Assembly: GCF_018350175.1 (NCBI RefSeq)
Contig: NC_058368.1
Coordinates: 83,454,001-83,518,000 of the forward strand
Length of the DNA stretch: 64,000 nucleotides
Direction of reading: 5' to 3'
DNA from: Felis catus
Lineage: Eukaryota
This document shows, piece after piece, positions 2,818 to 10,488 of the stretch (position 1 is its first letter; each line of letters opens with the position of its first letter). The notes below the pieces were generated by a model. It did no database searches. It saw only the letters and a program-made list of their open reading frames with translations, and had not been told where the DNA came from. Made by a program: the position numbers and the translations under genes.

Positions 2818-3771
2818 TTCTGTATCTTGGGTAAACAGTATGGGGGCTATTTTAGGCTGCCATTGTCCTTGGCCTTGTTTCTTCTTGGGGCATTCTCGTA
2901 TCCAATGGCCTTTTTCTTTACAATAGGCACATTGATCTTTATCTAAGTGCTGCCTGGGAGGGCGTGTTGTTTGAGTGCCTTCTGGGGGTGGCTGTTCTTT
3001 CTGGACTATAGCAGCCAGGACTTTAGTCATTTTCTCTGTGGCCTTGATCTGTCTCTCTTCTGGGGCGTCCCTGTTGTTGTAGACCCATTGCGCTATATGG
3101 AGCAGATCCTGGATCTGTTTACCTTCTAAATCCTCTAGACTTTGGAGTTTTATTTTAATGTCAGGAGCTGCTTGGTTTACAAAGGACATAACAACAGCAG
3201 CCTGGTTCTCAGGGACTTCTGGATTCATGGGGGTAAACTGTCTAAAGGCTTCCATTAATCTAAGTAAGCAGCTGGACTCTGCCTTTCCCTGTACGACCGA
3301 ATATACCTTAGCCAAATTGGTGGGCTTGTGAGCTGCAGCCCGGAGACCCACCATCAGAGTCTGGTGATAAATGAGTAGCCTTCCCCTACCTTCTGCAATG
3401 TTGTAGTCCCATTCGTCCTGTGGAGGTCTGGTTAGGGGGAAAGTCGCATTAATGAGGCCAGGGTTAGATGTCGGCTGACCGTCGTCTCCGGGAACCAGCT
3501 TTCTTGCTTCTAATTGGATCCTCTCTCGCTCCTCTGTAGTGAACAGGATGCGGAGGAGCTGCTGACAGTCGTCCCAGGTGGGCTTAGGGGTTATAGGGAA
3601 GCAAAAAGTTCCTTCGGTTGGCCATCCAATGCTGAAGGTTGGCCATTCAGAGCGGCAGAGGGTTATTAATTTTCCCCTCCGGATGTCTAGACTCAAATTC
3701 TGTCCTCTGGTTCTAACATCCCTGAAGTTAGCAATGAGGAGAGAAAGGGGAGTGCTTTGAGATTGGCCCAT
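2815..3771 (-). CDS. gag: Open 318-aa internally deleted Gag (63 aa of MA fused to CA lacking its N-terminus, plus NC)
   Basis: MGQSQSTPLSL myristoylation start; WPTF.IGWP.EGTF (MA); PTWDDCQQLL..LFT.EER (CA); CAYCKEKGHWIREC (CCHC zinc knuckle). No stop until the UAG at 2815. Expression is unknown. Confidence 0.8.
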   Translation of the reverse strand: MGQSQSTPLSLLIANFRDVRTRGQNLSLDIRRGKLITLCRSEWPTFSIGWPTEGTFCFPITPKPTWDDCQQLLRILFTTEERERIQLEARKLVPGDDGQPTSNPGLINATFPLTRPPQDEWDYNIAEGRGRLLIYHQTLMVGLRAAAHKPTNLAKVYSVVQGKAESSCLLRLMEAFRQFTPMNPEVPENQAAVVMSFVNQAAPDIKIKLQSLEDLEGKQIQDLLHIAQWVYNNRDAPEERQIKATEKMTKVLAAIVQKEQPPPEGTQTTRPPRQHLDKDQCAYCKEKGHWIRECPKKKQGQGQWQPKIAPILFTQDTE

Positions 3772-3830
3772 CTGTATCCGATCGGTCTCAGGGACGACCT
3801 GTTGACTTGGGGTCTGGTGGGCTTGGGGGG

Positions 3831-3850: not shown

Positions 3851-3985
3851 TGATATGCCCCAATTCGAGAGACCCCCCGAAAACAAACTGCCAGAGTCCA
3901 GAGTCAAAGCCAAGCGGCAAGGGTCGTTTATTGCAGGTTCGAACCCAGTCCTCAGCGCACTCATTGCCGGTGACGCTAAGAGGCC
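3851..3985 (-). promoter_or_regulatory. R-U5 portion of the 5' LTR (no U3)
   Basis: 135 nt containing AATAAA (3927-3932) and ending ...GGGGCATATCA before the PBS. Directly abuts the TSD. Confidence 0.8.
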
Positions 3986-8536: not shown

Positions 8537-10488
8537 GAGAGTGATGTCATTAAGATGGCAACACAAGTTATTTCCAAGTCACTTTCTTTCACAAACACAA
8601 CAAACAACTATTCATGGAGAAAATACCACTGAGAGAATCTTAAAACATGGGGGTGAAGTTGAAACACCCCCCTGTACCATAAAGACAGAGAAAACTACAT
8701 TAGAAAGATAAGAGAAGCAGCTACATTCTGACTGCATTGTCCCTCACCCAAGCCAGTGCAGCACTGTACTGAAAGGGCTCTCCTAAATCTATCAGTCACC
8801 CAGTGGGAAAAGAAAGTGCACAGTTGACACCCAGCTCCCCAGTTTTTGAAGTTATTTCTTGAGATCCTTTACCCTGGTCTTGCACCACAGGGATTGTAGG
8901 GAAATTTATGGGGCTTAATTACTGAAAATCTGGTTGTGATGGAGAAGGGTGGGAGAATAACAACAATCAGCACTCAGATACTAGCACAACAACTTCCTAC
9001 CTGCTATGCCCAAGTAAAAGTTCCAACCACAAAGTATGTTCATCTGGAGAGATAAAATGGAGATGCAGTCTAACCAAAGAACTAACTGGATGGGGTTCAT
9101 GTCTGCCTGATTGAGGCCCTGAGACAATAGCCTTTCTAGATCTGGAGGCTTGTCATTCCACATCAAAGGAAGGGAGCTGAGTCATAGCCTGGGAATCTTC
9201 TGAGTGTAACTCCCGGCCCCATATGACAAGAAAGCCTGGCTGTAACACCTTGAAATTGTGTAGCCCAGCAACATTCAAGCAGAGAGTATGGTAGGCAGAG
9301 ATTATTTCCACATAGTAAAGCCAGTGGCACTGTTCAACCAAGGAATTTGGAGAGTGATATGGCTTGAGTCAAGACCATAAACAAAGAGCCTTTGGGGGCT
9401 ATGGGTCAGTTCCCTCACTCTGCCCAGTGAGGGGAGGTAATTCATAGCCTCACCCATTGTTGAGTATAGCTCTACACTCCTCTGGACAGGTAAGCCTGAC
9501 TGGGAACATTTGGAAGGTAACTTGGAACTGGTCTTCCCATTCTGCTCTTGTAGAGGAACTAAATCGAGTACCACTCACCAATCAATTTAGCTCCAGGCTT
9601 CACCCAAACAGAGAGATTGGCTAGAACACCTGGAAAACTGTGTAACTCAAAATACTTGCATACAGAGTATAATAGTCCTAGCTTATTATATTCACCACAA
9701 CTTCAGTTGCCCCATTTGGCCAGGTTATTTAGAGGCATGTGTCAGCTTTATTCAAGACAACAAAGATCCTTGGCAGCCTTGGAGCCAGTTTTCTGCTCTA
9801 CCTGGCTAAGAATCTAATTTTAAGCCCTACTTTTGAAAAGGGCCTTCAGCCCATCTGACCAGATGACTTAAGCAAAGTACATGGAAAGTTGCTTAGCCCA
9901 CCCAATAACCCTGCTTAGAGTGCCAATTGAACTCAAAACACAGTCTATGGCTTTTCACCATCTGTAAGGCAAAACCTTAAGTTCTTTCTGCCAGGAAATT
10001 GAGTCTACCATCTTGACTTACTTGACTTCCCAAACAACCATCCATGTAGGCTCTGGGTTCCATTTGAGTGTTTTGCCAGTTAATCATAGCCCTGACTATT
10101 ATTGAGTGTAGTACCAAGTTCCCAAATCCAGTAATGCTGACCAGAAATGAAGACCAACACTGAACCCATTCTACAGCCTTGCTAGACAGAGATACTACGA
10201 ACAATTCTATCCAACTATTCTCAGCAGCAGCACACAACCACTGATCTAAAAGTTCAGGCAGCAGCCTTTCCCCAAAATAGATCCTGATAGCAAGCCCTAC
10301 TTGCCCAGGAACACTACTAGCAGAATTGTTCAAAACCTGAACGGAGCTAACTGCTGAAAAACTGTCTCTGCCAAAATGAATCTGGAAAATCTGGAAAAGG
10401 AGACTTCTTTCTCACATGTGAAGATAATAACTTAGGAAATCAACTCTAATAAAAAATCAAGAATCGTGAAAAGTCAAGCAACCATTAC

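Follow-up and report, generated by a model that had tools for sequence, protein, structure and literature searches.

The window is a stretch of 64,000 nt of the Felis catus genome (C1:83454001-83518000), and it was compared with the whole assembly, i.e., 2.43 Gb in 71 contigs. On its minus strand, the window carries a retroviral element that spans positions 3985 to 200 (coordinates below follow this strand and thus descend). Class I, gammaretrovirus-like domains were found with Pfam (Gag_MA, Gag_p30, zf-CCHC, integrase, and TLV_coat), and the closest Gag relatives are felid ERV proteins, with 73-79% identity; judged by its sequence, the element is a gammaretrovirus-like (class I) ERV copy. FcERV-gamma4 is a candidate family name for it (see PMC10878261). 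The element opens with an R region (3985-3904), at whose first base every LTR match starts and which contains an AATAAA (3932-3927), followed by U5 (3903-3851), ending in ...TATCA where the solo and 3' LTR matches also end (query position 145, i.e., window 3851). After a TT comes a decayed primer-binding site (PBS), the 18-mer TGGGCACTTGTCCGGGAT (3848-3831), which shows 3 differences in the alignment with TGGGGGCTCGTCCGGGAT; the latter, which we take to be a tRNA-Pro PBS, is present in two copies (L002 and L008), the remaining aligned copies differing from it at 1-2 bases. The next 59 nt (3830-3772), made of 32 nt ending in GTCAACAG and 27 nt starting with GTCGTCCC, lead to the gag ATG (3771-3769) and to a Gag N-terminus reading MGQSQSTPLSLL... 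The gag ORF (3771-2815, 318 codons, stop at 2817-2815) is followed by a protease region with stops and frameshifts (2814-2499), by a 147-nt GC-rich filler (2498-2352), and by a part collinear with full-length copies that covers RNase H, integrase, and the start of env SU (2351-200).

The preliminary description of this DNA had noticed the 59 nt between PBS and gag, and had explained them by the splicing of the leader between the major donor and an acceptor ahead of gag. The spacing is exact, and such a short one departs from the norm of all 17 copies with which it could be compared. Indeed, a query of 296 nt, running from R to early gag, matched many copies in the genome, and in these the parts lying on either side of window 3779|3778 sit several hundred nt apart. 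Eighteen copies besides the window were compared at the leader, both flanks being present in 17 of them (L033 has no gag side; two of the 17, L003 and L004, are near-identical duplicates). All 17 carry, between the flanks, an extra segment of 334-449 nt. After ...GA(T/C)(C/T)G, this segment begins with GTAAGT (13 copies), GTGAGT (3 copies), or GTAGGT (1 copy), and it ends with a long pyrimidine tract, ...CTCCTTTTAATCCTTTCCTCCACCTCCAG (CAG), ahead of GATACAGATGG. The window reads GACCGATCG|GATACAGATGG, i.e., the remainder of leader exon 1 (3830-3779) is joined precisely to exon 2, which starts at 3778. Since the extra segment is bounded by GT and CAG in the other copies and the window joins its flanks exactly, the missing leader segment was removed as an intron, as had been proposed.

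The comparison also fixed the splice sites themselves. The donor, GATCG|GTAAGT, lies 52 nt past the PBS, which agrees with the expectation of a major donor soon after it, and the acceptor, CCTCCAG|GATACAG, with its pyrimidine tract and CAG, lies 7 nt ahead of the gag ATG. The exact positions had been misjudged: the junction had been put near 3799/3798, 20 nt away from the real one at 3779|3778, and GTCGTCCCTGAGACCGATCG is contiguous with the PBS-proximal exon 1 in every full-length copy. Likewise, neither the predicted donor, CAACAG|GT(A/G)AG, nor an acceptor just ahead of GTCGTCCCTGAG corresponds to the actual sites. The comparison with parental leaders that had been suggested came out in favor of splicing: all 17 copies keep the GT and AG ends, and the short leader occurs nowhere else, the junction 28-mer, with up to 3 mismatches, having a single match in the 2.43 Gb, which is the window locus. 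The 17 copies are 82-94% identical to the window over the leader stretch, and their retention of GT and AG could result from simple descent among similar copies, so that it does not by itself demonstrate selection.

What the intron contains bears on the nature of the RNA that lost it. In all 17 copies, a block of 86 nt of the leader intron folds as two adjacent hairpins (RNAalifold energy -33.9), and in 14 of them each hairpin carries a GACG loop, the exceptions being the loop variants GAUG, GACA, GACC, and AAUG. C-G to U-A changes in the first hairpin were not counted as covariation, as they could equally be products of CpG decay. According to the accessible text of PMC13736810, the MLV leader has its major splice donor and then a packaging signal with the GACG tetraloops of SL-C and SL-D, and such a GACG hairpin pair is, with reference to Konings 1992, a hallmark of MLV-type leaders. 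The claim that the removed segment holds the packaging signal is thereby borne out at the level of the motif, a GACG hairpin pair typical of gammaretroviruses. Rfam gave no match at gathering scores in a full-length copy (L010) or in the window locus and, with E values up to 10, only chance-level matches in the L010 leader (mir-922, blv_FSE, and sno_ZL1), none of them to a packaging signal. Hence, the packaging claim rests on folding, the GACG motif, and position, from which we infer that the pair is probably the packaging core of this felid ERV family. With the intron, the window copy has lost the pair and, as the intron holds these hairpins, the RNA that was copied would have been an mRNA of gag type devoid of the packaging core.

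A second segment is missing from the window inside gag. In the 12 copies compared there, AAG|GTG...CACCCACCAG|CCC surrounds a segment of 635-664 nt (657 nt, the modal length, in 5 of the 12), whose donor reads GTGAA in 11 copies and GTGGA in one. In the window, the flanks meet exactly at 3583|3582 (CTAAG|CCCACC) and the frame is kept. Like the leader junction, this gag-internal one has no second match in the genome (up to 3 mismatches), and the segment is best read as another in-frame GT-AG intron, of about 657 nt, that was spliced out. By its outcome, positions 1-56 of the 113 of the Gag_MA profile are fused to positions 29-200 of the 201 of Gag_p30, followed by zf-CCHC, i.e., the 318-codon ORF links the N-terminal half of MA in frame to CA, of which the first ~28 profile positions are absent, and to NC. 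We considered a co-option of this open frame and rejected it. The 15 private changes in the ORF comprise 3 synonymous and 12 non-synonymous ones, for an unweighted expectation of 1:3.3, and the probability that 15 private substitutions create no new stop is, by our arithmetic, about 0.49. With a neutral 3:12 split and such a chance of remaining stop-free, the open gag frame needs no special cause.

The third gap is of another kind. About 1.55 kb of RT has been swapped for the 147-nt filler, and this gap is not a splice, since GT/AG ends are absent and a filler is present. A two-LTR provirus on C18 is collinear with the window through the RT deletion and the filler (window 3536-235, one block, 92.3%). 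As both are common to this provirus, they were inherited from an already defective proviral lineage. As for its source, the filler, read in antisense, shares about 85% identity with a GC-rich insert that another, younger family (Gag beginning with MGQTLTTPLTLTHFSDV...) carries within its gag; this family presumably resembles RD-114/ERV-DC. The gag insert of that younger family is itself 99.5% identical over 203 nt to a CpG-island-like region of about 2 kb that is present four times on C37 (12.96-13.10 Mb). From this comparison (loci L023, L016-L019, and L021-L022), the filler looks like a fragment of a host CpG island captured by ERVs.

The ends of the element show how it may have come to its present place. 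An integrase-made provirus has two LTRs (U3-R-U5) and a duplication of 4-6 bp, while an L1 processed retrocopy is flanked by a target-site duplication of about 7-20 bp. In the window, viral sequence begins at 3985 (GGCCTCTTAGCG...), a base that corresponds, in 10 of 10 LTRs, to a position 30 nt downstream of where TATAAAA starts, and U3 is absent. At the other end, viral homology stops at 200, inside env SU: after the viral GAAA, an A-rich tail (AAAAAATAAAAT, 199-188) replaces the continuing env, which the full-length copies read on with TGTCCTATG. This tail is short (12-15 nt), interrupted, and lies directly ahead of the 3' copy of a 15-bp duplication, AAAATG(T/G)CGATACTA. The two copies of the duplication (AAAATGTCGATACTA at 4000-3986 and AAAATGGCGATACTA at 187-173) have 1 mismatch, and a TT stands just before the 5' one, so that the 5' flank, ...ATTGTT|AAAATG, is an L1 endonuclease-type TT|AAAA site, TT|AAAA being the consensus site of this enzyme. 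The target is an L1 ORF2 sequence, i.e., an older L1 received the insert. An uninterrupted paralogous L1 ORF2 within the window (48767-48382, minus strand), 84-86% identical to the recipient L1, served as an empty-site control, against which the flanks of the insert overlap by the duplicated bases. A hexamer, AGTAAA (222-217), lies about 16 nt upstream of the end of viral homology and, as a candidate cryptic polyadenylation signal, may have driven the premature 3' end in env. The element thus combines the duplication, the TT|AAAA site, the A-rich tail, exact intron loss, and a promoterless start that mark processed retrocopies. In contrast, R-U5 stands at the 5' end only, the 3' LTR is absent, and the duplication measures 15 bp, not 4-6 bp; with its A-rich tail and TT|AAAA target, which are L1 features, and this duplication, the element does not fit an integrase origin. 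We therefore consider that window 3985-200 (minus strand) is, with a probability of about 0.9, an L1-made processed retrocopy of a spliced ERV RNA. Its private substitutions amount to 71 of 3599 positions (2.0%), many of the CpG-decay type, which at a rate near 2e-9 per site per year would make the insertion, as a rough figure, no older than some 10 million years; as a genome feature, the retrocopy is an ordinary pseudogene that decays neutrally.

Four sequencing runs were mapped to a full-length copy (L010:836-8992, on C46), namely two metatranscriptomic contig sets (X1 and X3), a contig set presumed to be RNA (X13), and oligo-dT raw reads (X24, about 2% of the run used, with a joint listing threshold of 3 reads). 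Judged by the poly(A) loose ends at L010 917 (75 reads) and at 8939 (31 reads), R measures 82 nt. Two raw reads link the leader donor to 6347/8, where an acceptor of the env type sits in the 3' part of pol, some 300 nt ahead of the env ATG; in two more, the same donor is linked to 1506/7, an acceptor (TTTCAG|GG) lying 57 nt inside gag. The latter joint would take out the gag AUG. As these four reads connect the leader donor to downstream acceptors, including the env-type one, this donor behaves as the major one, in agreement with what had been proposed from its place after the PBS. In X24, the sense-strand depth of 54 over R-U5 drops to 1.8 in the bin of the intron, then recovers to 12.2 in the one after it. 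The search for junction reads that had been called for gave a mixed answer. The exact 406-nt GT..AG leader skip was found in one X3 contig with a depth of 4.4, i.e., in 1 of the 4 runs; no joint from the donor to the pre-gag acceptor appeared among the X24 raw reads at the 3-read threshold, in about 2% of the run. Moreover, the X3 contig could come from the retrocopy's own DNA or transcript, and the RT-deleted form, known to be present as DNA, is found in X3 too. The leader splice thus has weak support from RNA-seq, and none of the 4 runs showed the gag-internal joint.

Taken together, these observations suggest the following course of events. A defective gammaretrovirus-like provirus, which already had the RT deletion and the filler, would have been transcribed from the LTR cap site. 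The leader intron would have been spliced out between the major donor, located 52 nt past the PBS, and the acceptor 7 nt ahead of the gag AUG, and the in-frame gag intron of ~657 nt would also have been spliced from this transcript. The spliced RNA would then have been polyadenylated prematurely in env, and LINE-1 ORF2p would have reverse-transcribed it into the TT|AAAA site of the older L1, giving the 15-bp duplication. The preliminary interpretation of the leader is thus retained for the removal of the intron and for the hallmarks of L1, and given up for the position of the junction, the predicted sites, and the spread through L1 (see below).

The same end product could be reached in two steps, if the spliced RNA had first integrated retrovirally as an intron-less provirus, whose transcript L1 later copied. 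The source lineage was already rearranged, the RT deletion and filler being found in a two-LTR provirus, which implies that defective variants did propagate as proviruses; furthermore, in the accessible text of PMC3590776, a spliced HML-2 copy made in retroviral fashion is proposed at 10q24.2. However, neither junction is found at any other locus, with up to 3 mismatches, and the simpler, single-step path accounts for all observations, which makes the intermediate provirus improbable. Still less probable is a deletion at the DNA level, arising once the copy had been inserted or through a template switch in reverse transcription, instead of splicing. The third gap, in RT, is clearly of non-splice type, with a filler and without GT/AG, and each junction shows a one-base microhomology (G); each has a placement ambiguity of 1 nt, GT..AG suiting one of the two placements, so that we estimate the chance of GT..AG at about 2 x (1/16)^2 per junction. 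Against a deletion, two independent gaps match to the base strong donors (G|GTAAGT and AAG|GTGAAG) and a CAG preceded by a pyrimidine tract, and raw RNA reads use the leader donor. Finally, that the family is natively short-leadered, the long-leader copies carrying an insertion, can be practically discarded, as the long form, with its GACG hairpin pair, is found in 17 of 17 other copies and the short form only in a copy without LTRs.

The L1 copying of the spliced RNA thus remains our preferred reading, and it concerns one event. The preliminary description had also suggested that the element spread through L1, for want of a packaging signal. The R-start 26-mer occurs 185 times in the genome, and a pattern made of the end of R and an A run gave 0 genomic matches, i.e., no R-plus-poly(A) retrocopy was found. 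As the leader and gag junctions are both unique in the genome, the family was not spread by L1, and the window retrocopy is a one-off event. At a low frequency, L1 makes copies of whatever RNA is polyadenylated, so that the loss of the packaging signal is unnecessary as a reason for the L1 route.

Fossils of this kind are already known from HERV-W, HERV-H, and HML-2, to which the window copy adds another case. Goodchild et al. reportedly described, in 1995, spliced HERV-H sequences in genomic DNA, returned there by retrotransposition. For HERV-W, L1-made copies of ERV RNA are well known (PMC5537654, accessible text), and a small subset of its processed pseudogenes is without a GT..AG pre-gag segment, which was read as an intron (2020, Mob DNA, PMC6995185, accessible text). 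To that extent, the resemblance with the window is one of mechanism alone: in both, L1 copied the RNA of a gammaretrovirus-like ERV minus a GT..AG segment located between LTR and gag. The HERV-W retrocopies, as far as these sources go, result from many L1 events and reach the 3' R and poly(A), whereas the window holds one copy with a premature end in env. In the window, unlike in these HERV-W accounts, the intron spans nearly the whole PBS-to-gag leader and holds the GACG hairpin pair; furthermore, a second, gag-internal intron was also removed, and the host is a felid. A further precedent is HERV-K(HML-2) at 2q32.1, given as a retrotransposed rec-like mRNA (Schmitt et al. 2013; PMC3590776, accessible text). 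Like the window copy, it goes back to an ERV mRNA that had been spliced more than once and was copied by L1, and it shows a target duplication as well as a poly(A) stretch; on the contrary, it is betaretrovirus-like, and the env and rec introns were spliced in it, not a pre-gag leader intron. We found no published description of an L1 copy of a spliced ERV in the cat or another felid genome, within an incomplete coverage of the literature.

In MLV, an acceptor just upstream of gag is not known, and the gag mRNA is the full-length RNA itself. The ERV family of the window differs, by its sequence, in that a strong acceptor precedes the gag AUG by 7 nt. The likeness with MLV lies in a donor that follows the PBS by a few tens of nt, and in a GACG hairpin pair downstream of it (PMC13736810, accessible text). 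As the pair is downstream of the donor, spliced MLV-type RNA is without it. We infer that the leader splice may be a regular product of the felid ERV, not an occasional one. A stronger version, which we hold to be rather doubtful, is that the leader intron is built into the lineage, so as to give routinely, from donor to pre-gag acceptor, a dedicated gag mRNA without packaging signal. If this were true, splicing would separate the translated from the packaged RNA pools, unlike in MLV, and the retrocopy would be the germline fossil cDNA of a normal, not an aberrant, mRNA. As a frozen cDNA, the retrocopy demonstrates the removal of the leader intron and its GACG pair at least once in the germline. 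The exact splice sites are now available for a felid ERV family, the HERV-W observation of a pre-gag intron is extended to carnivores, and the question whether some gammaretroviruses make a spliced gag mRNA without packaging signal becomes testable.

Several minor observations were made along the way. In the mapped runs, another GT..AG joint leads from gag CA to RT (L010 2493-4126), skipping 1632 nt, and is carried by 6 X24 raw reads and one X13 contig. MLV has an alternative donor in CA, of which the position of L010 2493 is reminiscent. A loose end at the start of R in X24 (129 reads) was considered as a second retrocopy and rejected. It corresponds to a second U3 subtype (L042-L044), ending in ...CCAACCCTGATCG(T/A/G) directly ahead of the same R, which has 28 genomic matches and is, with these 129 reads bearing its loose end, the more highly expressed in X24. 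Inside the integrase region of the window, a run of ~25 A (1890-1865, minus strand) was considered as a second tail and rejected as well; it is a simple-repeat growth from A6, the site reading A6 in 3 other copies and A4 in one, and yet another copy bears a (CAAA)n expansion there. Finally, the proviruses at C47:51.98 Mb (+; L004/L013) and C47:52.07 Mb (-; L003) are identical wherever compared and lie ~90 kb apart in opposite orientations, which suggests an inverted segmental duplication that included the provirus.
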